From: an uncultured Chloroflexia bacterium
Lineage (GTDB): Bacteria; Chloroflexota; Anaerolineae; Anaerolineales; E44-bin32
DNA: 64,000 bases
Assembly: GCA_963777165.1 (NCBI GenBank)
Contig: CAVZPO010000023.1
Span: 558,278 to 622,277 of the forward strand
Direction: 5' to 3'
Every line of letters starts with the position of its first letter. Position 1 is the stretch's first letter. Made by a program: the position numbers and the translations under genes. Positions 792 through 30,187 of this stretch are shown piece after piece. Below the pieces are notes generated by a model. The model made no database searches. It saw nothing but the letters and a program-made list of their open reading frames with translations, and was not told where the DNA came from.

Positions 792-803
792 CGGAGGAAG
801 CCC

Positions 804-7784: not shown

Positions 7785-7793
7785 TCCACGGCG

Positions 7794-13890: not shown

Positions 13891-13891
13891 T

Positions 13892-15541
13892 TCAATCCCC
13901 AGCTGTCGGCAGGAGCGGCTCCTTACGCACCGGGCGGATATGCCGTGCATAGTCGGGCAGCAGGATCGGGGACGGGCGCCCGTCCTCCAGACCGGCCTGC
14001 TGCCGTTCGTGGTTCCATCTCCGCAGATGATCCAGCGTCCGTGCCCTCGGCTCGTGCCCGAGGGCGTAGGCTGCGGCCGCCGTCCCGGCGCGGCGTCCAA
14101 AGACGGTGATGTCGAGCAGCGAGTTTCCCATCAACCGGTTCGATCCGTGGATCCCGCCCGCCGCTTCGCCTGCCACGTACAGGCCATCGACGCCGGTGGA
14201 TCCATCCGACAGGATCCGGATCCCTCCGTTTTGATAATGGAGCGTCGGATAGACCAGCATCGGCTGGCGTGTGATGTCGATGTCGAATCCCTTGAACTGA
14301 CGCACCATCGCCGGCAGTTCCTTCTCGATCGTCCCCGGCCCGTGGATCTGGTTGATCATCGGTGAATCGAGCCACACCCCGGGCTGGCCCGTCGGTGTCA
14401 CCACACCGGTCTTGCGGTCCAGGCACTCACGAATGAACGACGCCGCCTCAACATCGCGCGTTTCCAGGGGAAACACGAACTGCTCGCCGGAGATGTTGCA
14501 TACCTGCGCGCCCAGGCCGCGGACCTTTTCTGTCACCAGTTGCCCGAGGATCTGCTCCGGGTAGGCGACACCGGTGGGGTGATACTGCATCGTATGCAGG
14601 AACGCCAGGCGGCCCCCCACGCGGTAGGCCAGTACGAGGCCGTCCGCTGTCGCACCATAGTGATTGGTCGTGGGGAATCCCTGGTAATGCAGCCGGCCGC
14701 CTCCACCGGTGGCCAGGATCACCGCACGGGCTTGGACGAGCTTGTACTCTCGCGTCTCCAGGTCGAGCAGCACGGCGCCGGAGACGCTTCCCTGCCCGTC
14801 GGTCAGCAGCTCGACAACCGGGTTGAATTCGAGCACCCGGATGGTCTCCGCCCGCGAGCGGACCTCATCGCGCAGCACACGCATGATCTCTGCGCCGGAG
14901 TAGTCCCGCGCCGAGTGCATCCGCTTGCGCGACGTACCGCCGCCGTGGATGGTGCTCATGGCACCGTCCGCCCGCTTGTCGAACATCACGCCGAGCCCTT
15001 CGAGCCACTGGATAACCTTCGGCGCATCCGTGACCAGCGCCTCGACCAAATCCGGGTGGTTCGAGAAATGCCCCCCGCCCATCACGTCCAGATAGTGAAT
15101 TGCCGGCGAGTCTTCAGGCTGATCGGCGGCCTGAATCCCTCCCTGCGCCATCATCGTATTGGCGTCGCCGAAACGCAGCTTGGTGACCATGAGCACCCGG
15201 GCGCCCGCTTCGGATGCCATCAGCGCCGCGCACGCGCCGGCGCCACCGCCCCCGACGATCAACACGTCGGTCTCCAGATCACAACGGTCCAGGGCGAACG
15301 TGTCCGGGTCGAGCTGCGCCGGCGCCTCCAATACTTCGGCAAGCTCCAGAGGCGTGCGGTCGCCTTTGCAGGCTCCGAGCCGGATCTCGCGCGATGCCAG
15401 GGCGATGTAATCCGGATGAAAGCGTCTGAGCACGTCGTCGCGCTGCTCCGGCGTGAGCCTGGGGAAGGTGGTGCTCATCCGCGCGCCACGGCTGGCTTCC
15501 ACGCGGGCGATCGACTCAAGCATGGCAGGCGTGTAGGCCAT
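13892..15541 (-). CDS. Fumarate reductase / succinate dehydrogenase-family flavoprotein (FrdA/SdhA/TfrA-like) with a ~100-aa N-terminal extension
   Basis: FAD motif DVLIVGGGGAGACAAL, active-site region PTLHYQNGGI, and C-terminal GSNRLMGNSLLDITVFGRRAG, all typical of the Frd/Sdh/NadB family. The first ~100 aa precede the Rossmann motif. Confidence 0.75.
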   Translation of the reverse strand: MAYTPAMLESIARVEASRGARMSTTFPRLTPEQRDDVLRRFHPDYIALASREIRLGACKGDRTPLELAEVLEAPAQLDPDTFALDRCDLETDVLIVGGGGAGACAALMASEAGARVLMVTKLRFGDANTMMAQGGIQAADQPEDSPAIHYLDVMGGGHFSNHPDLVEALVTDAPKVIQWLEGLGVMFDKRADGAMSTIHGGGTSRKRMHSARDYSGAEIMRVLRDEVRSRAETIRVLEFNPVVELLTDGQGSVSGAVLLDLETREYKLVQARAVILATGGGGRLHYQGFPTTNHYGATADGLVLAYRVGGRLAFLHTMQYHPTGVAYPEQILGQLVTEKVRGLGAQVCNISGEQFVFPLETRDVEAASFIRECLDRKTGVVTPTGQPGVWLDSPMINQIHGPGTIEKELPAMVRQFKGFDIDITRQPMLVYPTLHYQNGGIRILSDGSTGVDGLYVAGEAAGGIHGSNRLMGNSLLDITVFGRRAGTAAAAYALGHEPRARTLDHLRRWNHERQQAGLEDGRPSPILLPDYARHIRPVRKEPLLPTAGD

Positions 15542-15550
15542 CCGGTCCTC

Positions 15551-16252
15551 CTAGGCTTCGATGTCTCGCGCGTCGTAGCGAGCGCGCAGGGATGCCTCGT
15601 CCAGCGCGCGCAGCTCGGCCAGCGCGGGGCCAAATTCCCCCCGTTCAACCTGTTCGACGCGGTCGGCAAGGTGAGCGGATCGCTTGGCCAGGTATCGCCC
15701 GTACAGCCTGCGGGCCAGCAGTGCCACGTTGTACTGGGTCTCTTCCACCGGGCAGCGTGCCGAGCACAGGCCACAGGCGATACAGTCGAAGGAAGAGTTG
15801 GCCACGGCGTCGATGTCCCCGCGCATGGCGGCGGCCATGTAGCCGCGCACATCGATCCCTTGGGGACAGGCCTTGGTGCACGTGCCGCACGCCAGGCAGC
15901 GCAGCAGCTCCGGGTAGAGCGTGAACAGCGTCCCCGGCACTGCGGCCAGCTCCTCCAGGCGGTAGTCGGCCCGGCGCGACGGGAAGAACGGGATTTGCGC
16001 CAGGTACATGTCGGGCCGGACGACCGTTTGGCAGGCCAATGCGAAGTACAGGCGCGGGTCGCCTTTCAAACGATAGACAGTGGCGCATGCGCCGCAGAAC
16101 CCGGCTCGGCAGCCGACGCCCCGTGTCAGCGTGTAGCCGGCATACTCCAGGGCGCGCAGAATGGTCAGCGTCGGAGGGACTTCCACACGCTGCCCCATCA
16201 CGAAGACGGGAATGTTCTCAACCTCCACGGCAGCCACCTCCTCGCCGCTCAC
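15551..16252 (-). CDS. Fumarate reductase-like iron-sulfur subunit ([2Fe-2S] plus two Cys4 clusters)
   Basis: CRAGFCGACA (plant-type 2Fe-2S), CLACGTCTKACP and CIACGLCSARCP. A candidate GTG start at 16252 overlaps the upstream stop (GTGA). An alternative GTG at 16228 lies 8 nt after GAGGAGG. Confidence 0.65.
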   Translation of the reverse strand: MSGEEVAAVEVENIPVFVMGQRVEVPPTLTILRALEYAGYTLTRGVGCRAGFCGACATVYRLKGDPRLYFALACQTVVRPDMYLAQIPFFPSRRADYRLEELAAVPGTLFTLYPELLRCLACGTCTKACPQGIDVRGYMAAAMRGDIDAVANSSFDCIACGLCSARCPVEETQYNVALLARRLYGRYLAKRSAHLADRVEQVERGEFGPALAELRALDEASLRARYDARDIEA

Positions 16253-17415
16253 CGGTGGGCCTCGCCCAGCTCGACGAATTCCTTGCGGTCGAATGTCGCC
16301 GGCGGGAGCGGGTCCTGCAGGCTGCGCCCCGGCACGTAATCGAAGAGCGCCTGCGTCCGGCGCGCGACTGTCTGGAAGAGCAGATCCACCGGCAGATCCG
16401 CCGGGCAGGCGCTGGTGCACATGCCGCACCCCACACACGATGCGGTCACATGACACAAGCGGGTGAGCTGGAAGGTCAGGGTGTCTCCCGGCAGGCGTGC
16501 CGCGCCCTTGCGCTCGGCCCAGCCGAAGTATCGGCGGGGCTCGTGGCGAAATGCATCGGTGCGGAACAAACATTCCTTGCAGTAGCAGATCGGGCAGGCG
16601 ACGGTGCAGTTGTGACAGCGTTGGCAGGGCTCGAAGTCGAGCATCAGCCCGGGACTTCCCTCAGGGCCGGGGTGCATCCGTGCTTCCATAGCATCGAGTG
16701 CCTGCAATCGCACCGTATGCCGAGCTGCCTCCAGCCCTCCCAGCGATGCGGCGCGCGCCGGAAGGTCTTCGATCGGCTGTGCTGAAGCGGGCAGCCAACC
16801 GCCGTCCCGCGCCTCCAGGAGCAGGCCGTCTTGCACACCGATCCAATGGACGGCCAGGTCGGCATCCCATGCTGCAGGTGTCTCACACAAAGTGCACGCG
16901 TGGCGATAGGCCTCCTGTGGAGCGTCCGGGGATGCTTCCCGCTGCGATGCATTCAACCGATGCCGCGCCTGTGGGTCGGATTCGCTCCAGCGCCGCCACG
17001 CGGCCCCCTCCAAGGTGCCGACACAGTCGATCCCGATGGTCATGAAGTCGTCCATCCGGAGCTGGTTGAGCTTGGCCAGCTCCACCATGCCGCGCAGTTC
17101 GCAGGGGCGGCAGACGATGCCGACCTTGCCTTCCGCCGGCGTCTCCTCCGTCGTCGCACCCTGGCTTACAAGCGACGCCATACGCGCCATGTGAATCGGC
17201 ATCACCGGCATCAGAGGATCGGCGAGTGTGAGTCGCTCGGCCTTCGTGACCAGTGCAGGCTGCACGCCCAGCCCGTCACGCGTCCGCAGCATCACCAGCA
17301 CGGCGCGCAGCCGGCCGGTCTCCAGCAGCTCGGCCAGAGTCTGCTGCAGAGTTTCCAGCCCACCGTCCGGTCCTCCCGGAAGAGCAGCAAACAAGCTCAT
17401 ACCGTTCGCTCCCAT
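16249..17415 (-). CDS. HydB/AsrA/Flx-like iron-sulfur protein (paralog 2)
   Basis: The N-terminal block VGIVCRPCELRGMVEL...MTIGIDCVGT and the C-terminal CQRCHNCTVACPICYC ... CVGCGMCTSACP mirror the layout of hydB in this same window (VVLGLHTCDLHAL...VSIEC; CLACAMCTNVCPTCYC ... CVGCGRCAQAC). An alternative ATG start is at 17400. Confidence 0.55.
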   Translation of the reverse strand: MGANGMSLFAALPGGPDGGLETLQQTLAELLETGRLRAVLVMLRTRDGLGVQPALVTKAERLTLADPLMPVMPIHMARMASLVSQGATTEETPAEGKVGIVCRPCELRGMVELAKLNQLRMDDFMTIGIDCVGTLEGAAWRRWSESDPQARHRLNASQREASPDAPQEAYRHACTLCETPAAWDADLAVHWIGVQDGLLLEARDGGWLPASAQPIEDLPARAASLGGLEAARHTVRLQALDAMEARMHPGPEGSPGLMLDFEPCQRCHNCTVACPICYCKECLFRTDAFRHEPRRYFGWAERKGAARLPGDTLTFQLTRLCHVTASCVGCGMCTSACPADLPVDLLFQTVARRTQALFDYVPGRSLQDPLPPATFDRKEFVELGEAHR

Positions 17416-17433
17416 CCGCCCATGCGGCGGTGC

Positions 17434-18486
17434 CTACGTCGTCCAGGGTAGAGGGTCATGCAGATCCCTGCCGGCCACGTAATGCATCCGCTGTTGGATC
17501 TGCCGGCTCAGCGCGCGCTGGATGGCGCTCAGCGGGATCCCTTCCGGACAATGAACCTGGCACATCCCACACCCCGAACACGAAGCCAGACGCTGGCTGG
17601 CACTCAAGAGCGCATGCACAAAGGCATCCTTGCCGCCGGCAAGCGCGGCGCGCAGTTCATCGCTCCACTGTGGGCACGCTTCAACACACTCGCCGCACAG
17701 CGTGCATTTGTTCATGTAGCCGCCGATCACGCCGGGGTAGGCATCGATGAGGCCCAGGCTCTCGAGCTTCGCCTCAGCCGCCTCCTTGCGGCGCTCAGTC
17801 AGCCGCCAAAGCGTGACCTCGCGATCGACCGTCTCCCTCTCAGTCGCCGGCCGGTCCGTGAGCGCCTCCAGGTTCCAGCGCGCATCCTTGGCTTCATCCG
17901 CCAGGACCAACAGCCGCTCCTGATTCGGCACGCCGACCAGACCGATCAGCAGGTCGGCCGCACGGTAATCGGCGGCCGGCCTATCACACAGCTGGCACGC
18001 AAGCCGGCAACCCTCGGCGCGCACCTGTCCCGTCTGTGCCAGCTGAAGTGCCTCCCCCATCAGCCAGTCCGGCCGGCCGGGGTGCGCGGCGTTCCCATTC
18101 GCCCAATACTCCGGCTCGTAGGTCGAAAGGCAATCGACGCCGACGAGGATGAGATTCGTCAGGTCGAGCCTCCCTTGTTTCGCCAATTCGATGGCCGCGC
18201 GGACCTCACATGGACGGAGGACGGCAATCGACGGCCCCGAAGGGCTGTCCCCGAACGCGGTCCGCAGAAGCGCAGCGGCATTGGCCTGCATCAGCGGCAA
18301 CAGTGGGTTGACCCCTGCGAGCTCGCTCACCTGCGTGAGGACGGCAGGGTTCACGTGTCCCGGTTCGGTGGAGACAGGTCCGAGCAGACGACGCGCGGCG
18401 CTGGCCCGCATCAATCCCGCCAGGAACGACTGCAGAACCGTGACGGGGCCGCCCTCCCCAACTTCCAAGACTCGACTCACTAACAT
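17434..18486 (-). CDS. HydB/AsrA/Flx-like iron-sulfur protein (paralog 1)
   Basis: The ATG at 18486 lies 7 nt after AGGAGG. SIAVLRPCEVRAAIEL...ILVGVDCLST and CTLCGECVEACP ... CSGCGMCQVHCP. Same architecture as the downstream neighbour. Confidence 0.55.
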   Translation of the reverse strand: MLVSRVLEVGEGGPVTVLQSFLAGLMRASAARRLLGPVSTEPGHVNPAVLTQVSELAGVNPLLPLMQANAAALLRTAFGDSPSGPSIAVLRPCEVRAAIELAKQGRLDLTNLILVGVDCLSTYEPEYWANGNAAHPGRPDWLMGEALQLAQTGQVRAEGCRLACQLCDRPAADYRAADLLIGLVGVPNQERLLVLADEAKDARWNLEALTDRPATERETVDREVTLWRLTERRKEAAEAKLESLGLIDAYPGVIGGYMNKCTLCGECVEACPQWSDELRAALAGGKDAFVHALLSASQRLASCSGCGMCQVHCPEGIPLSAIQRALSRQIQQRMHYVAGRDLHDPLPWTT

Positions 18487-18564
18487 GGGACCACCTCCTG
18501 GCGCCTGCCTCCTGGGATCAATGCCCGGAAGGGTGACGCCGCCCAGCCCACGCTCCACTCGGCT

Positions 18565-18993
18565 TTAGACCGACCACTCCTGGCGCATTGGCGTCGGGCC
18601 TTTCGCGCGCAGAGCGTCGGTCATTTCTCCGATCGTGTTTGCAAACAACTTGCCCTCACTGGCACTGATCCACCGCAGCCAGACCCGCTCCGAATCGAAG
18701 CCGGCGCCGCCCAGGACTTCCTTGAGCACTGCCGCGCGACGGCGAGCCTTGTAGTTGCCATCTTGATAATGGCAGTCGCCCGGATGGCAGCCGCCGATCA
18801 GGACACCATCGGCACCGTCGGTCAGCGCTTTGATCACATACACCGGATCGACTGCGCCGCTGCACATCATGCGAATGATGCGTACGTTGGGCGGATACTG
18901 GAGGCGGCTTGTCCCGGCCAAGTCCGCTCCCGTGTAGGTGCACCAGTTGCACAGGAACGCCACGATCCTCGGCTCGAACGCTGCATCCATCAT
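18565..18993 (-). CDS. mvhD: MvhD/FlpD-family protein
   Basis: MMDAAFEPRIVAFLCNWCTYTGADLAG, MCSGAVDP and GCHPGDCHY. The upstream 135 codons of the track ORF overlap the HdrA gene and are discounted. Confidence 0.85.
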   Translation of the reverse strand: MMDAAFEPRIVAFLCNWCTYTGADLAGTSRLQYPPNVRIIRMMCSGAVDPVYVIKALTDGADGVLIGGCHPGDCHYQDGNYKARRRAAVLKEVLGGAGFDSERVWLRWISASEGKLFANTIGEMTDALRAKGPTPMRQEWSV

Positions 18994-19049
18994 GGCTATC
19001 TCGCCACCCTTCCTGGCATCGGTCGACCCGCCCTGCCCGCCCTCGGGGC

Positions 19050-20768
19050 TCATCCGGTTTCCCACAGCGCAGCCTCCAGCATCTCCGTCACCTGCCCGAA
19101 CTCGAAGCCCTTCTGCTGGCTCGCCTTGTTGGGGCAGGCCGCCACACACGCACCGCAGCCCTGGCAGAGCACGTCCACGACCTGGGCGCTGGCGTCGCCC
19201 GGCTCCAGCCGCCGCGCGCCGAACGGGCAGATCTGAACGCATATGCCACAAGCCGAGCACAGCCTTGGATTGACAGTGGCGATGATCGGCGTCGCGGCCA
19301 GTTCCTTCCTGGCCAGCAATGCGGCGACCTTGATCGAAGCGGCCTGCGCCTGAGCCAGTGTTTCGTCGATCGAACGCGGGGAATGCGCCAGGCCGCACAG
19401 ATACGTGCCCTCGGCGGCGAAATCGACCGGCCGCAGCTTGACATGCGCCTCGAGAAAGAAACCGTCCTTGGTCAGTGGGACTTTGAGCAGGCGGCTGAGC
19501 GATGCGTTTCCGGGCTCGGCCTCGATCCCGGCGCTGAGCACCACCAGGTCGGCGATGAGTTCGACTGTTTCTTTCCCCGGCTGCGCGACGACGCGCACCT
19601 GCAGCTGCTCCGCTGATCGGCCGGGCACGCCCTCCAGGCGGCTGACCACCGGCGGTTCGACAGGATCGAATTGCAGGAACCGCACCCCGGCCAGGCGCGC
19701 CTGCCGGTACAACCGCTCACGGAAACCGTAGCTCCGCAGGTCTCGGTACAGGATCGTCACCTGCGCCTGCGGTGCCCGTTGCTTGAGTGCCAACGCGTTC
19801 TTCAACGCCTCCGAACAGCACACGCGCGAACAGTACGGGTGCGTTTCGTCGCGTGAGCCCACGCACTGGATCATGACCACCGTGCGCGGGAACGCATCGG
19901 AGGCTTCGTCGACCGGTGTCTGCAGGCGCCCCTCGAACTCACGCTGCGTCATGACGTTGGGGAGCGCTCCGTACCCGTACGCTTCCGGGCGACGTTCGCG
20001 GGCGCCGGTCGCCACGACGGTTGCCCCATGGAGCAGTTCGACGTTCTCCCCGTCGGCACGGCGCACGGTCGTCCGGTAGTTGCCCACGTAGCCTGCCACC
20101 TCGAGGACTTCCGCGCCGGTCAGCACGCTGATCCGCGGCTCGCCCGTCACCCGGGCGAGGGTCTCTTCCAGGAGGCGCTGCGGATCGCCGCCGTCCATCC
20201 CGACGAGGATGTGGCGCAGGTTACCGCCCAGTTCCTGCTCGCGCTCCACCAGTTGGACCGGGAAGCCCTGCGCCGCGATCGCCAGCGCCGCCGTCATCCC
20301 AGCCACCCCTCCGCCAATGACCAGTGCCCGCGGCACGACGGTCACGCTGCCGCACTGGATCGGACGCAGGGTCCGGGCCTTCGAGACCGCCATCGCCACC
20401 AGTTCCTTCGCCTTGCGCGTGGCCACCTCGGGTGATCCGCGATGAACCCACGCATCCTGCTCCCGAATGTTGGCCATCTCGAACAAGTGAGGATTCAGCC
20501 CGGCCTGACGCAGCGTGTCCTGGAACAGTGGCTCGTGTGTCCGTGGGGTGCAGCTCGCCACGACGACGCGGTTCAGCCGGTGCTCGAGGATCGTCGCCGT
20601 GATCTTCTGCTGCGTGTCCTGCGAGCAGGTGTAGATATTGCGTTCGGCATACGCCACCCCCGGCAGGCTTCTGGCGTATTCGACCACCTCGGGGACATCG
20701 ACCACACCCCCGATGTTGATCCCGCAGTGACAAACGAATACGCCGATGCGAGGCGCCTCGTCCGCCAC
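19050..20768 (-). CDS. hdrA: HdrA-family flavoprotein (N-terminal Cys domain + FAD domain + C-terminal 2x[4Fe-4S] ferredoxin; no inserted ferredoxin)
   Basis: A GTG at 20768 lies 6 nt after GGAG and just after the upstream stop (20770-20772). IGVFVCHCGINIGG, VIGGGVAGMTAALA, IQCVGSRD..HPYCSRVCC, CSACGICVQICP and CQGCGACVAACP. Confidence 0.8.
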   Translation of the reverse strand: MADEAPRIGVFVCHCGINIGGVVDVPEVVEYARSLPGVAYAERNIYTCSQDTQQKITATILEHRLNRVVVASCTPRTHEPLFQDTLRQAGLNPHLFEMANIREQDAWVHRGSPEVATRKAKELVAMAVSKARTLRPIQCGSVTVVPRALVIGGGVAGMTAALAIAAQGFPVQLVEREQELGGNLRHILVGMDGGDPQRLLEETLARVTGEPRISVLTGAEVLEVAGYVGNYRTTVRRADGENVELLHGATVVATGARERRPEAYGYGALPNVMTQREFEGRLQTPVDEASDAFPRTVVMIQCVGSRDETHPYCSRVCCSEALKNALALKQRAPQAQVTILYRDLRSYGFRERLYRQARLAGVRFLQFDPVEPPVVSRLEGVPGRSAEQLQVRVVAQPGKETVELIADLVVLSAGIEAEPGNASLSRLLKVPLTKDGFFLEAHVKLRPVDFAAEGTYLCGLAHSPRSIDETLAQAQAASIKVAALLARKELAATPIIATVNPRLCSACGICVQICPFGARRLEPGDASAQVVDVLCQGCGACVAACPNKASQQKGFEFGQVTEMLEAALWETG

Positions 20769-20769
20769 C

Positions 20770-23694: not shown

Positions 23695-23746
23695 GCTACC
23701 GCCTCTTCATGAGGCCAGCCCCGCCGCATGCAGCAGCGGGCGCGGG

Positions 23747-24565
23747 TCAATCAGATGCTTCGACCACCACGTTCGCGACTCCTCCAGCCCGAAGGCCAAG
23801 TCCCATCAGTTCACTGATGTAGAAGACCGGCATCCGGCGCTCCGGGCCCGCCTGCCGCATCTCCAAATTGACCTGGCACAGCGGACAGCTGGTCACGATC
23901 GCTTGAGCGCCGGCTTCCCTTGCCCGTCCTGCCAGGCGGCTCACCAAACGGCGGGCAACCTTCGGCTGGGTGAGGGTCAACGCACCCCCACAACATTCCG
24001 TGGCGTTTCCCCATGGGCGCACGTCCGCGCCCAACGCGCCGAGCAGCTCGCCCATCACGACGGGGTGCTCCGGATCGTCGAACTTCGTCACCTCTGGAGG
24101 GCGCACGAGAAGGCACCCGTAGTACGCCACGACCGGGAAACCAGCAAGATCCCGCGTGACACGATCGCGGATTGCTTTCGCACCGACCGCGTCATGCAGC
24201 ACCTCCAGCAGTGCTCGCACGGAGCTCGAACCGCGGTATTCGAACCCCACGGCCTGCTCGAGTTGGCGGCGGCGCTCCGGACTGGACTGCAGCTCGCGTT
24301 CGACCGTCTTGTGGCGGTTGAAGCACGCGGCGCAGGGCATGAGGACGTCATGGCCGGCAGCCTGCGCCAAGGAGAGATTGCGCGCCGGAAGCGTCAGGGA
24401 GAGAGTGCGGCTCCGGCTGTGAGCCGAGGAGGCGCCGCAGCAATTCCAATCTTCCAGTTCGATCAGGCCGATCTTCAGGGCGCGGAAGACAGCCGTGACC
24501 GAGTCGTGGAATTCGCGTCCGGTCGAGTGCAGACTGCATCCGGGATAGTAGGCGTATTCCATCAC
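23747..24565 (-). CDS. hdrB: HdrB-like subunit (two CCG domains), copy 2
   Basis: YYPGCSL, DWNCCGASS, YYGCLL, TECCGG, TSCPLCQVN. Confidence 0.85.
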   Translation of the reverse strand: MMEYAYYPGCSLHSTGREFHDSVTAVFRALKIGLIELEDWNCCGASSAHSRSRTLSLTLPARNLSLAQAAGHDVLMPCAACFNRHKTVERELQSSPERRRQLEQAVGFEYRGSSSVRALLEVLHDAVGAKAIRDRVTRDLAGFPVVAYYGCLLVRPPEVTKFDDPEHPVVMGELLGALGADVRPWGNATECCGGALTLTQPKVARRLVSRLAGRAREAGAQAIVTSCPLCQVNLEMRQAGPERRMPVFYISELMGLGLRAGGVANVVVEASD

Positions 24566-25167
24566 GTGCTCCGACCGTCCGCAGCTGCGCTCTCGTCTGA
24601 TGACGCGGACATCATGGGCTCCCGCGCCTCAAACAACCTGCCGAGCTGCGCCCTGCCCTTGACGAGATGCGGCACGAGCGGGATCTTGCCCTTGATCACC
24701 ATCTGGGCGCCGCTGCCGAGATCGGAGAACAGGTTACCCGTCCATAGTTTGTGGGCGCCCAGGAGCCCGGCCTCGTTCATCCGCCCCAGACGTTCGACCA
24801 GGAACAGGAACAAGCGATGGAATTTGACCGAACCCGAGTCGGCGCTCGGTACGCCCTCCGCCATTGCGATCTGACGCAGGGCGTCGACGACGCGGGCGAT
24901 GTCGATCTCATTCGGGCAGCGCGTGGCGCACGTCTCGCAGCCCGCACACAGCCACAGATCGGCGCTGGAAAGAAGCCGGTCCTTCTGCCCAAGCTGGACC
25001 AGGAGGAGGATTTGATCCGGGCCATAACGCATCTCGGCGGCCGCCGGGCAGCCCGAGGTGCACTTGTGGCAGTGGTAACACAGCTCGACCTGCTGTTCGG
25101 CCAACGCGTTCACCCTCTCCATCAGGGGGACGTCCACCATTGGTCGGCTGTGAACGGCTGTCGTCAT
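24562..25167 (-). CDS. hdrC: HdrC-like subunit (2x[4Fe-4S]), copy 2
   Basis: ATG at 25167 (the upstream HdrA ends at 25200). CYHCHKCTSGCP and CAGCETCATRCP. The stop overlaps the hdrB start (4-nt overlap). Confidence 0.8.
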   Translation of the reverse strand: MTTAVHSRPMVDVPLMERVNALAEQQVELCYHCHKCTSGCPAAAEMRYGPDQILLLVQLGQKDRLLSSADLWLCAGCETCATRCPNEIDIARVVDALRQIAMAEGVPSADSGSVKFHRLFLFLVERLGRMNEAGLLGAHKLWTGNLFSDLGSGAQMVIKGKIPLVPHLVKGRAQLGRLFEAREPMMSASSDESAAADGRST

Positions 25168-25199
25168 TGGCTCCTCATGGCTCCCGGGGATTCCCCGGG

Positions 25200-26915
25200 C
25201 TAGACGACCTCGTCCAGCATCGCCAGCACCTGCGCTGGATGCCAGTTGCGTACGTAACACGCTTTGTTGGGGCAACCCGCCACGCATGCACCACAACTCT
25301 GACACAGGGCGGCGTTCACTGTGGCTACGTGCCGCACCGGATGGATGGACCGGGCCCCGTACGGGCAGATGCCGACGCATGTTGCACACGCGGCGCACAG
25401 GTCTTCGATCACCGCCGCCACCGTCGGCGACTGGGTCATCTCTGAATGGGAGAACAACTGAAGCACCTTGGCGGCTGCGCCGCTGGCCTGCGCCAGCGTC
25501 TCGGGGATATCCCGTGGCCCCTGGCAGGTGCCCGCCAGGAACACCCCGGCGGTCAGCGTCTCAACCGGGCGCAGCTTGGGGTGCGCTTCATTGAAGAATC
25601 CGTTGGCATCCGTGCTGATGTGGAGCGTCTGGCCGAGTTCGGTGGCGCCCGCCGCCGGGACCATCGGAGTCGCCAGAACGACCAGATCGGCGGCGATATC
25701 GATCGCCAGCCCGCTAAGCGTGTCCGAACCGGACACGCGGATCTTGCCCTCGTCCAGACAGACCTCGCTCACCTTCCCGCGCAAGTAGAGAGCGCCATGC
25801 TCCTCGATGGCTCGCCGTACGTACTCCTCGTACCCTTTGCCCGCCGAGCGGATGTCGATGTAGAAGACGTAGGCCTGGCCGTCGGGGACCAGCTGTCGGT
25901 ACTGCATGGCCTGTTTGGCGACGACCATGCAGCAGACCTTCGAGCAATACGGCACGCCGCGTTCCGGGTCCCGCGAGCCGGCACACTGAACGAAGACCAC
26001 CTGGCGGGGCACAGCGCCATCCGACGGACGCCGCAATTCGCCGCCGCGCGATAGCACTCGCTCGAAGTCGAGCGTGCTGATCACATCGGCCAGGAGCCCG
26101 CCTCCGTACTCAGGCAGGCGCGCGGGCTCGTAGGCGTCCCAACCCGTGGCCACGACGATCGCCCCCGCGTCGAGCGAGAACGGCGTAGGCTCATCGCCCT
26201 CCGGCGCAGCGGTGCGGATCTCCACCTGGAAGTTGCCCACATATCCGCTGCATGAGGTGACCTGCGAGCCCGTCAGCACCTGGATCTTCGGGTGGCTCTC
26301 GACTGCGTTCGTCATCGCCTGCAGGCGCTCGAAGCCTCCCGTGAGGTTCACGAAAGTCCCGCTCAACTGGGCCATGCGCCCGCCCAGCCCCGCCTCGCGC
26401 TCGACCAGGACGACCGGGTAGCCGGCGCCGGCGACATCCAGGGCGGCCTGCATGCCGGCGATGCCGCCGCCGATGACCACGCACCGACGGGTCAACGCCA
26501 GGGTCAGCGGCTCGAGCGCTTCATCCAGGTGTACCTTCTCGACAATCGACCGGACGATGTCGGAGGCCTTGGCCGTCGCCGCCGGCATGTCATGCTGATG
26601 CACCCACGACACCTGCTCGCGAATGTTGGCGCTCTCGCACCGGAAGGGATTCATCCCGGCGCTGAGCGCCGTGCGGCGGAAGGTGGTTTCGTGCATCGCC
26701 GGAGAGCAGGCCGCCACCACAATCCCGTCGAGGTGATGGTCGGCGATCGACTGGCGGATCAACTGCTGCCCCGGATCGGAGCACATGTATTTGTAATCGG
26801 CGGCGAAGGCAACTCCCGGATGATGGCGCAGCTCATCAGACAACGCGGCCACATCCACCGCCGAGGCGATGTTGTGGCCGCAATGACAGACGAACACCCC
26901 GATGCGACTGCCCAT
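25200..26915 (-). CDS. HdrA/QmoB-like flavoprotein (N-terminal Cys domain + FAD domain + C-terminal ferredoxin; no inserted ferredoxin)
   Basis: IGVFVCHCGHNIAS, VVIGGGIAGMQAALDVAGAG, VQCAGSRDPERGVPYCSKVCC, VFYIDIRSAGKGYEEY, GPRDIPETLAQASG, CAACATCVGICP, CQSCGACVAGCP. Confidence 0.8.
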   Translation of the reverse strand: MGSRIGVFVCHCGHNIASAVDVAALSDELRHHPGVAFAADYKYMCSDPGQQLIRQSIADHHLDGIVVAACSPAMHETTFRRTALSAGMNPFRCESANIREQVSWVHQHDMPAATAKASDIVRSIVEKVHLDEALEPLTLALTRRCVVIGGGIAGMQAALDVAGAGYPVVLVEREAGLGGRMAQLSGTFVNLTGGFERLQAMTNAVESHPKIQVLTGSQVTSCSGYVGNFQVEIRTAAPEGDEPTPFSLDAGAIVVATGWDAYEPARLPEYGGGLLADVISTLDFERVLSRGGELRRPSDGAVPRQVVFVQCAGSRDPERGVPYCSKVCCMVVAKQAMQYRQLVPDGQAYVFYIDIRSAGKGYEEYVRRAIEEHGALYLRGKVSEVCLDEGKIRVSGSDTLSGLAIDIAADLVVLATPMVPAAGATELGQTLHISTDANGFFNEAHPKLRPVETLTAGVFLAGTCQGPRDIPETLAQASGAAAKVLQLFSHSEMTQSPTVAAVIEDLCAACATCVGICPYGARSIHPVRHVATVNAALCQSCGACVAGCPNKACYVRNWHPAQVLAMLDEVV

Positions 26916-26945
26916 GGAACTCCGTTTAGTCTCCTCGCCCGCCCG

Positions 26946-28340
26946 TCAGGCAATCACGAGCTGCTGCGCATTCACCCGCTGCTGAAAAAGGGAAAGCACC
27001 TTGGCCGCCGCGCCGCTGGCCTGTGCGACCGTCTCCGGGATGTCCTTCGGCCCGAGCGCCGCGCCCGCCAGGAACACCCCTTCGGCCCCGCACTCGACCG
27101 GCGCCATCTCTTCATCGCCCGGAATCAGGAAGCCATTGCTGTCGACGCCCACGCCGAACAGATCGGCGACGGCGGCCGTGCTGGTGCGCGGCACGAATGC
27201 CGTTGCCAGGACCACCAGGTCGGCGGGGATCTCGACCGCCCGGTGGCTCAGCGTGTCGGCCCCCATGACCATCAGCTTGCCGTCCTGGGCGTAGATCTTG
27301 CTCACCTTACCGCGCAGGTAGATGACCCCGTGTTCCTCCTGCGCCCGGGTCACGAACTCCTCGTACCCTTTGCCTCCCGCGCGTACGTCGATGTAGAAGA
27401 CGTACGCCTGCCCCTCCGGTACCCGGTGTTTGTACAGCATCGCCTGCTTGGCCACATACAGGCAGCAGATCTTCGAACAATACGGCACGCCCCGCTCCGG
27501 ATCACGCGAGCCGCTGCACTGCACGAAGACGACCTGCTGGGGCACTGCCCCGTCCGACGGACGCAGGACCTTGCCGGCCGTTGGACCGCTCGCCGCCAGC
27601 AGGCGTTCGAACGCCAGCCCGTCTACGACGTCCTGCAGTTCCCCGCCGCCGTACTCGGGCAGTCGCTCCATTGGCAGCAAGTCGTAGCCGGTCGCCATGA
27701 CGATCGCCCCCACCTCTTCCTCGACGACCGTGTCCTGCTGCTCCCAGTCGATGGCGCCCGTCGGACAGAGTTTGGCGCACGCACCGCACTTGGGCGTCGC
27801 CGGGTTTCCCTGCTTGTCAACCGAAGGCGCACGTCCGGCCTCGATGTCCCACTTGCTCTGCAGGTAGCGGCAGTGCTCGGCATCGATCACCGGCTTGTTG
27901 GGCACCGCCTGCGGCGACAGGGTGTAGATGACCTTTCGCTTTCCGATCCCGCGCTCAAAGTTCGACTCGACCTTGAACGGGCATTTCTCCTGACAGACGC
28001 CGCAGCCGGTGCACTTCTCCCAGTCTACATAGGCCGCCCGGCGCCGAACCCGCACTGTGTAGTTGCCCGAGGCTTCCCTTCGGACCAACTCGATTTCGCT
28101 GTGTGTGTGGAGCCGGATGTTCTCGTGGTGACCGACCTCGACCGTCCTGGGGGTCATGATGCACTGCGAGCAGTCGAGCGTCGGGAAGGTCTCGGAGAGC
28201 TGGGCCATGTGGCCCCCGATCGAGGGCTCGCGCTCGACCAACACCACCGGAAAGCCGCTGTTGGCAATGTCGAGCGCGGCGGTGATCCCGCCAATTCCCG
28301 CGCCGACCACCAGGGCCGTGGTGCAGGCCGAGTTGCTCAT
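26946..28340 (-). CDS. HdrA/QmoA-like flavoprotein (FAD domain with inserted 2x[4Fe-4S] ferredoxin; no N-terminal Cys domain and no C-terminal ferredoxin)
   Basis: The ATG at 28340 overlaps the hdrB stop (ATGA). ALVVGAGIGGITAALD, TFPTLDCSQCIMTP, CTGCGVCQEKCP, CGACAKLCP, VQCSGSRDPERGVPYCSKICC, VFYIDVRAGGKGYEEF, GPKDIPETVAQASG. Confidence 0.8.
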   Translation of the reverse strand: MSNSACTTALVVGAGIGGITAALDIANSGFPVVLVEREPSIGGHMAQLSETFPTLDCSQCIMTPRTVEVGHHENIRLHTHSEIELVRREASGNYTVRVRRRAAYVDWEKCTGCGVCQEKCPFKVESNFERGIGKRKVIYTLSPQAVPNKPVIDAEHCRYLQSKWDIEAGRAPSVDKQGNPATPKCGACAKLCPTGAIDWEQQDTVVEEEVGAIVMATGYDLLPMERLPEYGGGELQDVVDGLAFERLLAASGPTAGKVLRPSDGAVPQQVVFVQCSGSRDPERGVPYCSKICCLYVAKQAMLYKHRVPEGQAYVFYIDVRAGGKGYEEFVTRAQEEHGVIYLRGKVSKIYAQDGKLMVMGADTLSHRAVEIPADLVVLATAFVPRTSTAAVADLFGVGVDSNGFLIPGDEEMAPVECGAEGVFLAGAALGPKDIPETVAQASGAAAKVLSLFQQRVNAQQLVIA

Positions 28341-29182
28341 GCGGCGGCCTGGAGCGGCAATGCAGGGCCGGCGTGCTCCGCCAGGCCGAAGGCGGCCGCC
28401 ATCACTTGAGTGAAATATGCCACCGGCAGCTGTTCCGCCGGCGGCTTTCCCTCCTGAGCCCGATCGAGATTGAACTTGCACAGCGGACAGGCCGTGACCA
28501 CGATCGTGGCGCCGGCGGCGCGCGCCGATTCGATCACCGCCGCCGACAGCCGCTGGTTGGCATCGGGGGCCGAGACAAGCAGCGTTGAACCACAGCACTC
28601 CGCCTGCCGGGCGAAGCCGACCGGCTCGGCACCCACGGATTGCAGTAGATCGTGCAGCACCCGCGGCGCCTCGGGCTTGTCGAACTCCATCTCGGCCTCA
28701 GGCCGCAGCAGCAGGCACCCGTAGTACGGCGCCGCCCGCAGTCCCTGAAGGGGCGCCACCACGCGTCGGCGCACGACCTCCCAGCCGAGGTCGTCGCGCA
28801 GGATGCCGAGCAAGTGGCGAACGTGCACCCGTCCGTCGTAGTCCCCTTCGGTCACGAAGGCATTCAGGCGATCGGCGGCCTCCGGGTGCGTCCGCAGGAA
28901 ATAGTCCGATCTCTTCAGGGCGTGAAAGCACACGGCGCACAACGTCGCCATGTCTCGCCCGGACTCCTGGGCAGCGATCAGCGCCCGCGCCGGGGCGATG
29001 AAGTTCATCACGTTCTCGGCGCTGAGCGGGAAGGATGCGCCGCAGCAGTTCCAGCCCGGCACTTCCCGCAGCTCGAGGTCCAACGCCGCCGCCACGGCTC
29101 TGCCGGAGGCATCGTAGTCGACCGCGGTCGTCGCCAGCGTGCAGCCGGGGAAGTAGGAGTAGAGCCGCTCGGCCGAGGTCAT
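28337..29182 (-). CDS. hdrB: HdrB-like subunit (two CCG domains), copy 1
   Basis: YFPGCTL, GWNCCGASF, YYGCLLL, AECCGS, TACPLCKFN. Confidence 0.85.
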   Translation of the reverse strand: MTSAERLYSYFPGCTLATTAVDYDASGRAVAAALDLELREVPGWNCCGASFPLSAENVMNFIAPARALIAAQESGRDMATLCAVCFHALKRSDYFLRTHPEAADRLNAFVTEGDYDGRVHVRHLLGILRDDLGWEVVRRRVVAPLQGLRAAPYYGCLLLRPEAEMEFDKPEAPRVLHDLLQSVGAEPVGFARQAECCGSTLLVSAPDANQRLSAAVIESARAAGATIVVTACPLCKFNLDRAQEGKPPAEQLPVAYFTQVMAAAFGLAEHAGPALPLQAAA

Positions 29183-29583
29183 CGCTCGCCTCTCCGCAGG
29201 GCGGCGATGACGGCCATTTGCGGTGCGGAGGCCAGGAGCGCGCCGTCCACCCGTCCCGCCAGGACGCGAGAGTCACCGCGCCGCAGGGCGATCTGGCGCA
29301 CGGCTTCCATGACCCGCGGCAGGTCGACCCCTTTCGGACAACGCGACTGGCACATCAGGCATGAGGCGCACATCCAGGGGGTCTGTGAATCGATGACCGT
29401 CTCCAGGCCGAGTTGAGCGAGCCGGATGATCTGGTTCGGAAGCAGGTCCATCTCCTCGACCAGCGGGCAGCCGGCGGAGCACCGGCCGCACTGATTGCAT
29501 TTCAGGAGGTTCTGCTCGGAGATCGCCTCGATCTCACGCACGAAGGGGCCGTGCAGCGCCGCCGGGTCGAGGGTTACGCGCAT
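29179..29583 (-). CDS. hdrC: HdrC-like subunit (2x[4Fe-4S]), copy 1; first gene of the long minus-strand operon
   Basis: ATG at 29583. CNQCGRCSAGCP and CASCLMCQSRCP. The stop overlaps the hdrB start. The upstream part of the track ORF lacks protein-like composition. Confidence 0.75.
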   Translation of the reverse strand: MRVTLDPAALHGPFVREIEAISEQNLLKCNQCGRCSAGCPLVEEMDLLPNQIIRLAQLGLETVIDSQTPWMCASCLMCQSRCPKGVDLPRVMEAVRQIALRRGDSRVLAGRVDGALLASAPQMAVIAALRRGER

Positions 29584-29780
29584 CGGGGCACCCCCCGGGT
29601 CTCGGCCCGGGGACGGCACGGATTGGCCGGGGAGAAGAAGCCGAGCGGAATGGGCCGTCTCTCGTCGAGGCTCACACCATGCGTCCCCATTTCGCATGGT
29701 CGACGGGTGCCGGGCACCGCGGCCAGAGAGAGTGACCCGGAGATCGCATGACCGATCGGCCTTCCGCACTGAGGGAGCAC

Positions 29781-29931
29781 GCTAGCACCTCGCGGAAATG
29801 GTTAACCCAGTCTAGCGGCGACCGTCCGGCGTCGTCATCCACCCTTGGCCTGAGATTGCCAGCGACGGTGGCCGACAGGCTCAAGTGTCTAGCATGTTGA
29901 GTATTTCGGTCTAGCTCATCGGGTTTCTAGC
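29781..29931. promoter_or_regulatory. Cluster of five (G/T)CTAGC hexamers in the divergent intergenic region; three lie in a locally AT-richer patch
   Basis: GCTAGC at 29781-29786. TCTAGC at 29811-29816, 29888-29893, 29910-29915 and 29926-29931; three of these are GTCTAGC. The cluster lies 200-350 nt upstream of hdrC (29583) and 260-400 nt upstream of the BNR gene (30188). A function as operator sites is inferred only. Confidence 0.3.
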
Positions 29932-30105
29932 CTTTTCGGCTTCAGCGCCGCGTTCAGGGCGTGTTCGCACGATCCCGGGTCGCTCCCACTTCATGGTCGC
30001 CCCGCAGGCATAGGTGCACCGCAATGGCACATGCCCCTCCGCGGCCGTGCACCTTCCGGGTCAGGTCCCACGAACAGGTGATTCCCGTTCTCGGTTGCAA
30101 TAGGA

Positions 30106-30111
30106 TATAAT
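30106..30111 (+). promoter_or_regulatory. Candidate -10 box (TATAAT) for the BNR/MoaD-like operon
   Basis: Exact TATAAT 77 nt upstream of the GTG at 30188, in an otherwise GC-rich context. No good -35 at 17 nt (TTCCCG at best). Confidence 0.3.
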
Positions 30112-30187
30112 CCGTCCGGTTTGGCCCCCTTGGAGAGTCGAGTCTTGGACATCGGGGCACAGCGCGAAGCACTGGAAGGAGCGAAAC

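Follow-up and report, generated by a model that had tools for sequence, protein, structure and literature searches.

Thirteen open reading frames (ORFs), all on the minus strand, form a block of about 16 kb (13892-29583) in DNA of an uncultured Anaerolineae (Chloroflexota) bacterium. The stretch analysed, hereafter the window, is 64,000 nucleotides (nt) long, and all coordinates are positions in it. The block has the appearance of an operon in which relatives of the subunits of heterodisulfide reductase (Hdr) are encoded together with a terminal pair resembling the flavoprotein and iron-sulfur subunits of fumarate reductase (Frd), and its products may constitute a soluble fumarate reductase. 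A preliminary description of the window, made from the letters and translations without database searches, had singled out the same block as a redox operon lacking a membrane anchor.

Organization of the operon

The position, strand and tight packing given in the preliminary description are borne out. With the most plausible starts, neighbouring ORFs overlap by 1-4 nt or are separated by gaps of no more than 78 nt, the junction lengths depending on the start codons chosen here. In transcriptional order, each line closing with the junction to the next ORF, the ORFs are:

29179-29583, minus strand: hdrC1, 134 amino acids (aa), two CxxCxxCxxxCP motifs at residues 29 and 72, Pfam Fer4_8/Fer4_17; 4-nt overlap
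28337-29182, minus strand: hdrB1, 281 aa, 10 Cys, CCG motifs at residues 46 and 196; 4-nt overlap
26946-28340, minus strand: 'QmoA-like' HdrA core, 464 aa, FAD domain with an inserted ferredoxin domain; 30-nt gap
25200-26915, minus strand: 'QmoB-like' HdrA, 571 aa, N-terminal CHCG Cys domain, FAD domain and C-terminal ferredoxin domain with 2x[4Fe-4S]; 32-nt gap
24562-25167, minus strand: hdrC2, 201 aa, Pfam Fer4_17/Fer4_9, NCBIfam HdrC 74 bits, two CxxCxxCxxxCP motifs; 1-4-nt overlap
23747-24562, minus strand: hdrB2, 271 aa, Pfam CCG 84 bits in two stretches, CCG motifs at residues 41 and 190; gap of about 55 nt
20770-23691, minus strand: HdrL part, 973 aa, HdrA core whose inserted ferredoxin domain houses a GltD-like NAD(P)H/FAD/2x[4Fe-4S] module; 1-nt gap
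19050-20768, minus strand: HdrA part, 572 aa, N-terminal CHCG, FAD and C-terminal ferredoxin domains, NCBIfam HdrA2 496 bits; 56-nt gap
18565-18993, minus strand: mvhD, [2Fe-2S] connector, 142 aa, Pfam FlpD 177 bits, NCBIfam VhuD 132 bits; 78-nt gap
17434-18486, minus strand: FeS1, FdhB/ElpB-like, 350 aa, 13 Cys; 18-33-nt gap
16249-17400, minus strand: FeS2, FdhB/ElpB-like, 383 aa, 15 invariant Cys, consistent with four [4Fe-4S] clusters; 4-nt overlap or 20-nt gap, depending on the frdB start
15551-16252, minus strand: FrdB-like protein, 225-233 aa (start at 16228 or 16252), one Cx4Cx2C...C motif for a 2Fe-2S cluster and two CxxCxxCxxxCP motifs; 9-nt gap
13892-15541, minus strand: FrdA-like flavoprotein, 549 aa, Pfam FAD_binding_2 (PF00890) 230 bits at residues 92-475

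Two genes on the opposite strand bound the block, and a spacer of 520 bp separates the operon start from the upstream one:

12592-13890, plus strand: AlkZ-like gene, convergent, downstream limit
30104-31303, plus strand: BNR-repeat gene, divergent, upstream limit

Domain labels were taken from Pfam and NCBIfam profile searches of the 13 proteins. They agree with the earlier naming of two hdrC and two hdrB genes, four HdrA-family flavoproteins, a GltD module, MvhD and an FrdB-/FrdA-like pair, and with the placing of these parts in an Hdr/Mvh/Qmo-like toolkit. Because none of the 13 proteins reaches a curated NCBIfam equivalog cut-off, they are best classed as relatives of the named families and not as members. 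In a window whose overall G+C is about 66%, many of the ORFs are G+C-rich at third codon positions, as real genes are. A membrane-helix-type hydrophobic stretch of 19 residues was found in none of the 13 proteins by a scan that returned 56 such windows for the positive control OadB, and the operon is anchor-free, as had been proposed. Consensus-based scans of positions 13000-30500 gave no promoter-like sites and 6 terminator-like sites where 7.1 are expected, results that are uninformative for a Chloroflexota genome of 66% G+C.

HdrA-type flavoproteins and their HdrC and HdrB partners

Both electron-transfer subunits of the Hdr type are duplicated, hdrC2 being 39% identical to hdrC1 and hdrB2 39% identical to hdrB1. 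HdrC1 scores 67 bits against the NCBIfam HdrC model (cut-off 160). HdrB1 matches Pfam CCG in two stretches (72 bits), and the HdrB proteins score about 140 bits against the NCBIfam HdrB model (141 for HdrB1; cut-off 345). The best NCBIfam match of both HdrB proteins is the SdhE-type anchor model NF042965, with 162 bits for HdrB1 and 148 for HdrB2 (cut-off 500).

The HdrA-type proteins score 463-587 bits against NCBIfam cut-offs of 1100-1400, and they fall into two architectures. The QmoA-like protein has neither the N-terminal Cys domain nor the C-terminal ferredoxin domain; it aligns with positions 140-562 of the HdrA2 model (463 bits, cut-off 1100) and has Pfam Fer4 matches at residues 104-123 and 184-203. 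The QmoB-like protein, which matches HdrA2 in two stretches (587 bits) and Pfam Fer4_7 at residues 507-552, lacks both an inserted ferredoxin domain and an MvhD tail (no Pfam FlpD match). The HdrA part shares this second architecture and over its full length shows 41% identity to the QmoB-like protein. In HdrL, Pfam Fer4_20 and Pyr_redox_2 match residues 184-596, and the NCBIfam matches include PRK12771 (466 bits) and gltA (303 bits); a BLAST comparison with the QmoA-like protein places this GltD/NfnB-like insert, of about 510 residues, between the two cluster motifs of the HdrL ferredoxin domain.

No single polypeptide carries the full domain set of a methanogen-type HdrA. The domains are instead divided between paralogues, with the QmoA-like protein and HdrL consisting of core plus insert, and the QmoB-like protein and HdrA consisting of N-terminal domain, core and C-terminal ferredoxin domain. 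The same pairing, in which one HdrA core bears a ferredoxin insert with or without GltD and the other HdrA bears N- and C-terminal domains, recurs in related loci as separate or fused proteins, and each such pair would reconstitute the domain set of the methanogen HdrA homodimer. The names QmoA- and QmoB-like, given in the preliminary description, can be kept for architecture only: QmoC is missing, the QmoB-like protein has no MvhD-like tail, and the terminal flavoprotein is not AprA.

HdrL and HdrA are one ORF in all relatives with a readable junction (for example in loci L001, L006, L031, L042, L057, L062 and L074), where the fused linker reads '...ARGTLTxExxYPPERDxSxEEPRVGVFVCHCG'; in the window, the linker peptide 'TQERTYPAERE' runs on in the hdrA frame upstream of the GTG chosen as start. 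The break was located by DNA alignment with eight related loci:

20795-20810, near 20802, minus strand: site of a 1-nt insertion that splits the hdrL::hdrA frame

The extra base is present in the window and in none of the eight relatives. It shifts the frame into a stop at 20770-20772, 30 nt later, and the GTG lying 1 nt past that stop could restart translation; the unsplit gene has about 1545 codons. Other genes of the window are split in frame as well, namely those for the small and large subunits of a group-3b hydrogenase (56741-58789). In locus L003 (CAVUPD010000003.1), from a species-representative metagenome-assembled genome (MAG) and 97% identical, frameshifts break dozens of ORFs in the operon region, and the locus is unreliable for gene-level comparison. 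Because of these further frameshifts in the window and in L003, the hdrL/hdrA split is probably an assembly indel, and programmed recoding at this site is a less likely explanation. Thus the earlier count of 13 holds for ORFs but not for genes: the ancestral operon, as reconstructed from the relatives, has 12 genes, and its HdrA-family flavoproteins number three if the fusion is counted as one.

The terminal flavoprotein and iron-sulfur subunit

The description of the last two products as a fumarate-reductase-type flavoprotein and Fe-S subunit stands, and the dicarboxylate-binding and catalytic residues are intact. The FrdB-like protein matches Pfam Fer2 (27 bits) and Fer4_8 and has no CCG domain. 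Its N-terminal part resembles TfrB, dhsB and Wolinella succinogenes FrdB weakly, and its C-terminal part resembles HdrC in the same way; the score against the TfrB model is 35 bits (cut-off 385).

The FrdA-like protein carries an N-terminal extension of 90 residues that is conserved, largely helical and confidently modelled by AlphaFold2 (AF2). Its best NCBIfam match is TfrA (NF004900; 330.5 bits, cut-off 718), with the NadB (267 bits) and SdhA models close behind, and among full-length proteins those of the TfrA-like and PRK07803-like types lie closest to it in sequence space. Foldseek matches of the model are to SdhA, FrdA and NadB (top, probability 1.00) and to flavocytochrome c3, and alignments with the Protein Data Bank (PDB) structures of SdhA, FrdA and NadB extend over the FAD and capping domains. 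No Pfam match to Succ_DH_flav_C was obtained, matches to the NCBIfam models, which are about 550 positions long, break off at about position 410, and the protein ends about 55 residues after the HGSNRL motif.

Compared with Mycobacterium smegmatis SdhA and Salmonella NadB, the protein keeps QYHPTG (His), TEKVRG, ETRD (the proton-donor Arg), HYQNGG (His) and HGSNRL (Arg), and H321, T337, E338, R341, R362, H435 and R469 do not vary among 35 homologues. This His/Arg/His/Arg set is common to the fumarate/succinate enzymes and NadB, and a C4-dicarboxylate substrate is therefore to be expected. The His that binds FAD covalently is replaced by Asn128, invariant in the same 35 homologues ('GDANT' versus 'GKAHT' in SdhA), and the FAD of the FrdA-like protein is putatively bound non-covalently. 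Non-covalent FAD in FrdA/SdhA, as in Escherichia coli FrdA mutants, supports fumarate reduction but not succinate oxidation, and the Asn thus favours the reductive direction.

The order hdrCB-qmoAB recalls Gram-positive sulfate reducers, and a role for the block in AprA/Qmo-type electron transfer was considered and set aside. No AprA-family or adenosine 5'-phosphosulfate (APS) reductase occurs among the NCBIfam and PDB matches listed for the FrdA-like protein, and no sat, apr or dsr genes were found in the 64-kb window. The QmoC model was matched over its first 95 or so positions only (59-65 bits, cut-off 300), without hydrophobic segments.

The MvhD and FdhB/ElpB-like proteins

The mvhD gene lies directly upstream of an FdhB-like gene in the window and adjacent to one in most related loci; its product is 54% identical to a second MvhD encoded at 792-1301. 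The two Fe-S proteins that follow are paralogues, 29% identical over their full length. FeS1 finds subunits of Hdr-associated complexes in a phmmer search of the PDB (7bkb_E, 4.6e-9; 9t1s_M, 6.5e-9). A profile of 40 FeS2-family sequences finds the same chains with far lower E-values (9t1s_M, 2e-45; 7bkb_E, 1e-37), together with ElpB (8rvu_E, 9e-36), in matches that span positions 11-373 of 386. The AF2 model of FeS2 (pLDDT 87), in which an N-terminal alpha/beta domain is confidently predicted, is superposed by Foldseek on FdhB/ElpB structures with TM values of 0.73 and 0.71, and JGI pipelines name homologues of these proteins 'formate dehydrogenase subunit beta'. FeS1 and FeS2 are thus assigned as full-length homologues of the Hdr-associated FdhB/ElpB. 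A mobile arm on HdrA, made up of FdhB/ElpB and MvhD/ElpC, is seen in the solved structures of Fdh-Hdr and Elp-Hdr (PMC12350162).

The preliminary description had labelled the two proteins HydB/AsrA/Flx-like, an identity that had to be abandoned: Pfam Fer4_22 scores 20.6 bits for FeS2 (cut-off 27, cluster motif only) and gives no match for FeS1, whereas FdhB/ElpB are matched by both in sequence and by FeS2 in fold too. A genuine HydB/AsrA-like protein of the window is encoded elsewhere (54756-55892; Fer4_22 105 bits).

FdhB and ElpB oxidise F420H2 at an FAD site, and the full-length homology and fold match make it conceivable that FeS1 and FeS2 are likewise active sites of hydride transfer, taking electrons from F420H2 or another deazaflavin or flavin as in Elp-Hdr and passing them to fumarate and/or a disulfide. 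Some Chloroflexota make F420, a further point in favour of such a donor. The FdhB segment 'GECGGAVT' (GxCGGAVT, near the N-terminus), however, falls on non-conserved columns of the FeS2 family profile. Pfam FrhB_FdhB_N was not detected, and FrhB_FdhB_C is marginal at 25 bits. The window contains no F420 biosynthesis genes, though 64 kb says little of a genome, and a site for NAD(P)H is already supplied by HdrL. An F420H2-type donor is quite improbable on this balance; a possible reading is that FeS2-family proteins no longer have the flavin/F420 site and serve solely as an Fe-S wire.

Distribution and synteny

The FrdA-like family comprises proteins of 80 GTDB species representatives, 65-97% identical and all from Chloroflexota, mostly Anaerolineae/Anaerolineales. 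At the level of 50%-identity clusters, the N-terminal extension is shared by only a few further clusters, including some from marine Gammaproteobacteria MAGs and one Prochlorococcus genome. Clusters P0123 and P0128, for instance, hold N-extended homologues of 43-47% identity from marine Gammaproteobacteria/Thiotrichales MAGs and from Prochlorococcus sp. MIT 1201.

Linkage was counted by calling ORFs in fetched loci and matching them to the window proteins, in 46 species-representative loci with at least 8 kb of upstream sequence. An FdhB-like gene and an HdrA-family gene each accompany frdA in 43 of the 46, frdB does so in 40, hdrC, which is often fused to hdrB (hdrC::hdrB), does so in 38, and mvhD in 28. 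The order varies by clade. One clade has hdrCB-hdrL::hdrA-mvhD-FdhB-frdBA, another has qmoA-hdrCB-qmoB-mvhD-FdhB-frdBA followed by a second HdrA/MvhD/HdrL set, and a third has hdrL-hdrCB-qmoB-FdhB-fdx-frdB-ACAD-FdhB-frdA, where ACAD denotes an acyl-CoA-dehydrogenase-like gene; the complete order of the window is confined to its closest relatives (L001, L003, L004, L006, L007 and L057). This linkage, which recurs with varying order in 80 species-representative Anaerolineae genomes, is far beyond chance, and because content is conserved despite rearranged order in dozens of Anaerolineae species, there is good evidence that the operon is a functional unit.

In a large Anaerolineae subclade the ACAD-like gene stands between frdB and frdA (8881-9987 in L002, 7779-8888 in L013), frequently accompanied by genes for a small ferredoxin and another FdhB-like protein; a gap of 1.0-1.2 kb is present at the same place in about 20 further loci. 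This arrangement raises the question of whether the FrdA-like and FrdB-like proteins act on some substrate other than fumarate, such as L-aspartate (in the manner of NadB), a substituted succinate or fumarate, or a CoA-linked enoate handled with the ACAD-like protein. The nearness of the NadB models to TfrA (267 versus 330 bits), the missing of every curated cut-off, the unique N-terminal extension, the missing C-terminal domain and the aminotransferase gene adjacent in the window would all fit such a substrate. NadB, on the other hand, has no Fe-S partner, yet frdB is linked in 40 of the 46 loci; the active-site His/Arg/His/Arg set still implies a C4-dicarboxylate; and the ACAD-like gene is absent from the clade of the window. 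A different substrate class is unlikely on these grounds.

The variation in order also bears on whether all subunits belong to one complex. The block could be one transcription unit for at least two enzymes, a soluble QmoAB-like/HdrC1B1 enzyme acting on a disulfide and an HdrC2B2/HdrL::HdrA/MvhD/FdhB-like/FrdAB enzyme, in place of a super-complex of 12-13 subunits. L031, L042, L062 and L074 have hdrL::hdrA-mvhD-FdhB-like-frdBA alone, and in L024, L044, L046 and L078 the string is qmoA-hdrCB-qmoB-mvhD-FdhB-like-frdBA alone and the HdrL set follows downstream. Just one mvhD is present in the operon, and in Syntrophobacter fumaroxidans a module of HdrABC, FdhB-like, MvhD and HdrL proteins exists without Frd. 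Most lineages nevertheless keep both modules beside frdAB. Division into two enzymes, a possibility to be held open only tentatively, would leave the Frd-proximal module as a fumarate reductase of the kind proposed below, altering the stoichiometry but not the principle.

Neighbouring gene clusters

Besides the operon, the window contains several gene groups of energy and C4 metabolism:

1-4306: canonical Hdr-Mvh (group 3c) cluster, opening inside hdrA (C-terminal 260 aa)
792-1301: second mvhD, in this cluster
1298-2284: mvhG
2285-3769: mvhA
3770-4306: HycI-type protease
5241-7037: carboxyltransferase, with a biotin carrier gene also in this region
7785-8924: Na+-decarboxylase beta subunit, OAD_beta
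9955-11646, minus strand: ATP-dependent phosphoenolpyruvate (PEP) carboxykinase
11604-12821, minus strand: class I/II aminotransferase
54756-58789: group 3b sulfhydrogenase-like [NiFe]-hydrogenase cluster with HydB/AsrA-like, HydG-like, small and large subunits

The preliminary description had connected the operon to H2 through MvhD and the Mvh hydrogenase at 1298-3769. That hydrogenase, however, has its own hdrA and mvhD, preceded by hdrC-hdrB-hdrA in the relatives L016 and L068, and lies 10 kb from the operon across unrelated genes, so that the gene layout lends no support to coupling with H2, conceivable though this is physiologically. In the group-3b cluster, the HydG-like protein (55917-56741) combines NAD_binding_1 and DHODB_Fe-S_bind domains, and the RxCGxC (RICGIC) and DPCxxC (DPCISC) motifs of the large subunit lie in different frames; both hydrogenase subunits seem to be frameshift-split. 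A LuxR-type response regulator with a HisKA_3 histidine kinase (33598-35491) and a separate GAF-domain histidine kinase (59771-61615) are encoded within 4-30 kb of the operon.

Genes for PEP carboxykinase, the aminotransferase, the carboxyltransferase and OAD_beta are found beside the operon in L001, L003, L004 and L006 as well, and these shared surroundings suggest a conserved context of C4-dicarboxylate/propionate metabolism; the neighbours fit a fermentation running from PEP through oxaloacetate, fumarate and succinate to propionate. Genes of this methylmalonyl-CoA-pathway type can serve the oxidation of propionate as well as its formation, and the operon could in principle work oxidatively, as in syntrophic oxidation of propionate or succinate, with electrons of succinate and reduced ferredoxin brought together (confurcation) onto NAD(P)+ or a disulfide. 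FrdAB would then occupy the arm that serves as donor in Fdh-Hdr and Elp-Hdr. The replacement of the covalent-FAD His by an invariant Asn speaks against this direction, as do poor thermodynamics, succinate (+30 mV) and ferredoxin averaging above the potential of NAD(P)H, and the oxidative alternative is very improbable indeed.

A proposed route of electrons to fumarate

The reading preferred here, for which the chances are judged about even, is that the operon encodes a soluble, cytoplasmic, quinone-independent fumarate reductase that receives its electrons from HdrA-type flavoproteins equipped with an NAD(P)H module and that possibly bifurcates electrons to ferredoxin. Its substrate could possibly be a closely related C4-dicarboxylate enoate instead of fumarate. 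The FrdA-like subunit, with non-covalent FAD, would reduce fumarate with electrons passed on by the one [2Fe-2S] and two [4Fe-4S] clusters of the FrdB-like subunit. FrdB would in turn dock on one or two of the FdhB/ElpB-like poly-[4Fe-4S] subunits, which would connect through the [2Fe-2S] cluster of MvhD to the HdrA-type flavoproteins. This arm would correspond to the FdhAB-MvhD or ElpABC arm of methanogen HdrABC, with FrdAB taking the place of FdhA or ElpA, a placement proposed because of the gene string mvhD-FdhB-like-frdB-frdA.

On the HdrA side, two heterodimer-style pairs are envisaged, HdrL(::)HdrA and QmoA-like plus QmoB-like, each with its own HdrCB. The GltD/NfnB-like NAD(P)H-FAD module nested in HdrL would be the entry point for NAD(P)H, and the QmoA-like protein, which keeps a plain inserted ferredoxin domain, the exit to ferredoxin, as in methanogen HdrA. 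Oxidation of NAD(P)H would then be coupled by flavin-based bifurcation to exergonic reduction of fumarate (E0' about +30 mV), which would drive the endergonic reduction of ferredoxin; calculated from standard potentials, the balance is about -49 kJ per 2 NAD(P)H. In Nfn, the flavin at an NAD(P)H site of the HdrL type is itself the bifurcating flavin. The CCG clusters of HdrB could relay electrons, or they could cycle a thiol/disulfide intermediate in the way that heterodisulfide links Tfr and Mvh-Hdr in methanogens. Flow toward fumarate is proposed because the fumarate/succinate couple is far more positive than the Hdr couples and because the FAD would be non-covalent. The preliminary description had offered a cytoplasmic multi-flavin complex as a working hypothesis; its anchor-free Hdr toolkit and its fumarate-type end pair are retained and conserved synteny has been added, while its Mvh/H2 link finds no support in the gene layout.

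Several points weigh against the proposed route. By analogy with Fdh-Hdr and Elp-Hdr, the FdhB-like/MvhD arm would be an electron input to HdrA, the high-potential output running from HdrC to HdrB, so that a fumarate-linked arm maps poorly onto the canonical geometry of bifurcation. The flavin segment of FdhB is not conserved in the FeS2 family. The FrdA-like protein misses all curated cut-offs, lacks the C-terminal domain and is N-extended, which makes fumarate a putative substrate, and the ACAD-like gene between frdB and frdA in one subclade hints at other or additional substrates. The stronger form of the proposal, in which FrdAB has replaced FdhA/ElpA on the arm of a bifurcase to give a true NAD(P)H : fumarate + ferredoxin reductase, the first Hdr enzyme with reduction of an organic enoate, and not of a disulfide, as its exergonic half-reaction, is a tentative one.

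The same arm geometry is also compatible with an enzyme that bifurcates nothing. Electrons of NAD(P)H, entering at the GltD module of HdrL, and/or of a dithiol, entering at HdrB, might simply run downhill to fumarate, as they do in thiol:fumarate reductase and in the Hydrogenobacter enzyme, without reduction of ferredoxin, and the position of FrdAB on the arm would by analogy suit electrons leaving HdrA in this manner. TfrA is the best curated match of the FrdA-like protein, and a purified soluble NADH-dependent fumarate reductase of five subunits exists in Hydrogenobacter thermophilus, as described in PMC13147460. Such an enzyme, however, would leave four HdrA-family flavoproteins, two HdrCB pairs and the ferredoxin domains as excess machinery, and it would waste about 350 mV, which is unusual for strict fermenters. 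A wholly downhill reductase is accordingly doubtful, and a soluble, HdrA-fed fumarate reductase with possible transfer to ferredoxin continues to be preferred.

Implications

Bifurcating fumarate reduction has been postulated from gene clusters of Firmicutes and of sulfur-oxidising symbionts but never demonstrated. As a target, the Anaerolineae cluster is compact, well conserved and widespread, and the structural hypothesis that goes with it is clear, namely that FrdAB sits on the FdhB-like/MvhD arm. If this hypothesis is true, a high-potential organic acceptor would be added to the Hdr family of bifurcating enzymes, and the donor arm of Hdr would be modular, with Frd as a fourth partner after Mvh, Fdh and Elp. 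It would also explain how Anaerolineae of digesters, sediments and aquifers could gain extra energy from fumarate reduction without quinones, and it would change energy-yield estimates for succinate and propionate fermentations in anoxic habitats rich in these bacteria. Automatic annotation may meanwhile mislead metabolic reconstructions, the FdhB-like proteins being named 'formate dehydrogenase beta' and the FrdA-like protein 'succinate dehydrogenase/fumarate reductase flavoprotein' or 'aspartate oxidase'.

Comparison with known systems

The preliminary description did not recognise the combination of genes as a described complex. This needs qualifying, since Flx-Hdr with FrdAB or TfrAB has been proposed before and the S. 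fumaroxidans module is known, but no description of this exact Anaerolineae/Chloroflexi arrangement was found in the open literature, subscription journals lying outside the scope of the search.

The closest proposals involve Flx-Hdr. FlxA is reportedly, in work attributed to Ramos and colleagues in 2015, an NAD(P)H/FAD-binding subunit with a 2Fe-2S cluster, of the NAD_binding_1/DHODB_Fe-S_bind type, and FlxB and FlxC are HydB/AsrA-like Fe-S proteins. For Flx-Hdr with soluble FrdAB, encoded in the co-regulated 'succinate operon' of Pseudoclostridium thermosuccinogenes, bifurcating fumarate reduction has been put forward as the function (PMC7282089 and its ref. 15), and the same function has been proposed for tfrAB-flxABCD-hdrABC of tubeworm symbionts (Ca. 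Endoriftia) and Thioflavicoccus mobilis (PMC6315080, PMC11636981, PMC13147460). These proposals derive from clusters that are co-regulated or co-expressed, and the enzymes have not been purified. Like them, the Anaerolineae operon clusters an anchor-free FrdAB/TfrAB-type pair with HdrABC and an MvhD-type connector, and for them too the coupling of NADH oxidation to reduction of fumarate and ferredoxin has been proposed. A counterpart of FlxD is present as the MvhD-like protein encoded with the hdrABC genes (FlpD, 177 bits). In contrast to the Flx-Hdr clusters, the operon has no FlxA-type subunit, NAD_binding_1/DHODB_Fe-S_bind domains being found in none of its 13 proteins, and NAD(P)H would enter through the GltD-like module of HdrL. 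It also differs in its FdhB/ElpB-like connectors, its four (three if fused) HdrA paralogues, its two HdrCB pairs, an FrdA that is N-extended and without the C-terminal domain, the lack of fumarase or reductive tricarboxylic acid cycle (rTCA) genes in the operon, and its Chloroflexota host.

The Fdh-Hdr(-Fmd) and Elp-Hdr complexes (PDB 7BKB, 8RVU, 9T1S) share with the operon an FdhB/ElpB-like protein beside an MvhD/ElpC-like protein and HdrA, HdrB and HdrC, with the gene for a catalytic partner adjoining. In the operon, however, that partner is FrdAB and not FdhA or ElpA, HdrA is split into paralogues, the flavin motif of FdhB is not conserved, the host is bacterial, and electrons would probably run outward to fumarate. 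To our knowledge, metabolism of coenzymes M and B (CoM/CoB) is not to be expected in Chloroflexota.

TfrAB of Methanothermobacter is likewise soluble, TfrA is the best curated match of the FrdA-like protein, and CCG domains are encoded in both systems. The N-terminal half of TfrB has a 2Fe-2S cluster and two full Cys4 [4Fe-4S] motifs, as does the FrdB-like protein. Unlike in TfrAB, the CCG domains of the operon are on separate HdrB1 and HdrB2 proteins and not fused to FrdB, HdrA, MvhD and FdhB-like proteins are added, and the TfrA score is under the cut-off.

Proteomics of S. fumaroxidans revealed a cluster, Sfum_0819-0824, of hdrABC, FdhB-like, MvhD and HdrL genes (PMC5947623). The operon resembles this cluster, and the HdrL of Desulfobacterium autotrophicum, in combining an HdrL bearing an NAD(P)H module with hdrABC, FdhB-like and MvhD genes, a set thought to be confurcating or bifurcating. 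The S. fumaroxidans cluster has no FrdAB and its proposed acceptor is DsrC, whereas the operon ends in frdBA and its HdrL is fused to a second HdrA.

In QmoABC-AprBA, and in QmoAB-HdrCB of Gram-positive sulfate reducers, two different HdrA-like flavoproteins and Fe-S proteins of the HdrC(B) type serve a soluble flavoenzyme of the FrdA superfamily with its Fe-S partner, and the order of hdrCB and qmoAB in the operon is reminiscent of this. The operon differs in that QmoC and any link to membrane or quinone are missing, the QmoB-like protein ends without an MvhD-like tail, and the terminal enzyme is not AprA.

We know of no MvhD or FdhB-like subunits reported for the fumarate reductase of H. thermophilus. 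That enzyme, a soluble NADH fumarate reductase of five subunits, has been purified (Miura 2008, as cited in PMC13147460). By the description given there, it is similar to the predicted Anaerolineae enzyme in being cytoplasmic, multi-subunit and of FrdA type, using a pyridine nucleotide irreversibly in the reductive direction; unlike those of the operon, its five genes are described as scattered in the genome.

Type E succinate:quinone reductases (SQR) and menaquinol:fumarate reductases (MFR), SdhABE, combine FrdAB-type subunits with an HdrB-like subunit with two CCG domains. In the operon, by contrast, each hdrB lies at least five genes from frdAB and is paired with an hdrC, the SdhE scores are far below 500 bits, and there is no sign of a membrane or quinone connection.

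Set against all of these systems, what is new in the Anaerolineae operon is the absence of FlxA together with a putative NAD(P)H entry in HdrL, the placing of FrdAB beside FdhB-like proteins and MvhD, the two heterodimer-style HdrA pairs, an FrdA that is extended at its N-terminus and truncated at its C-terminus, and the prevalence of the cluster in Anaerolineae.

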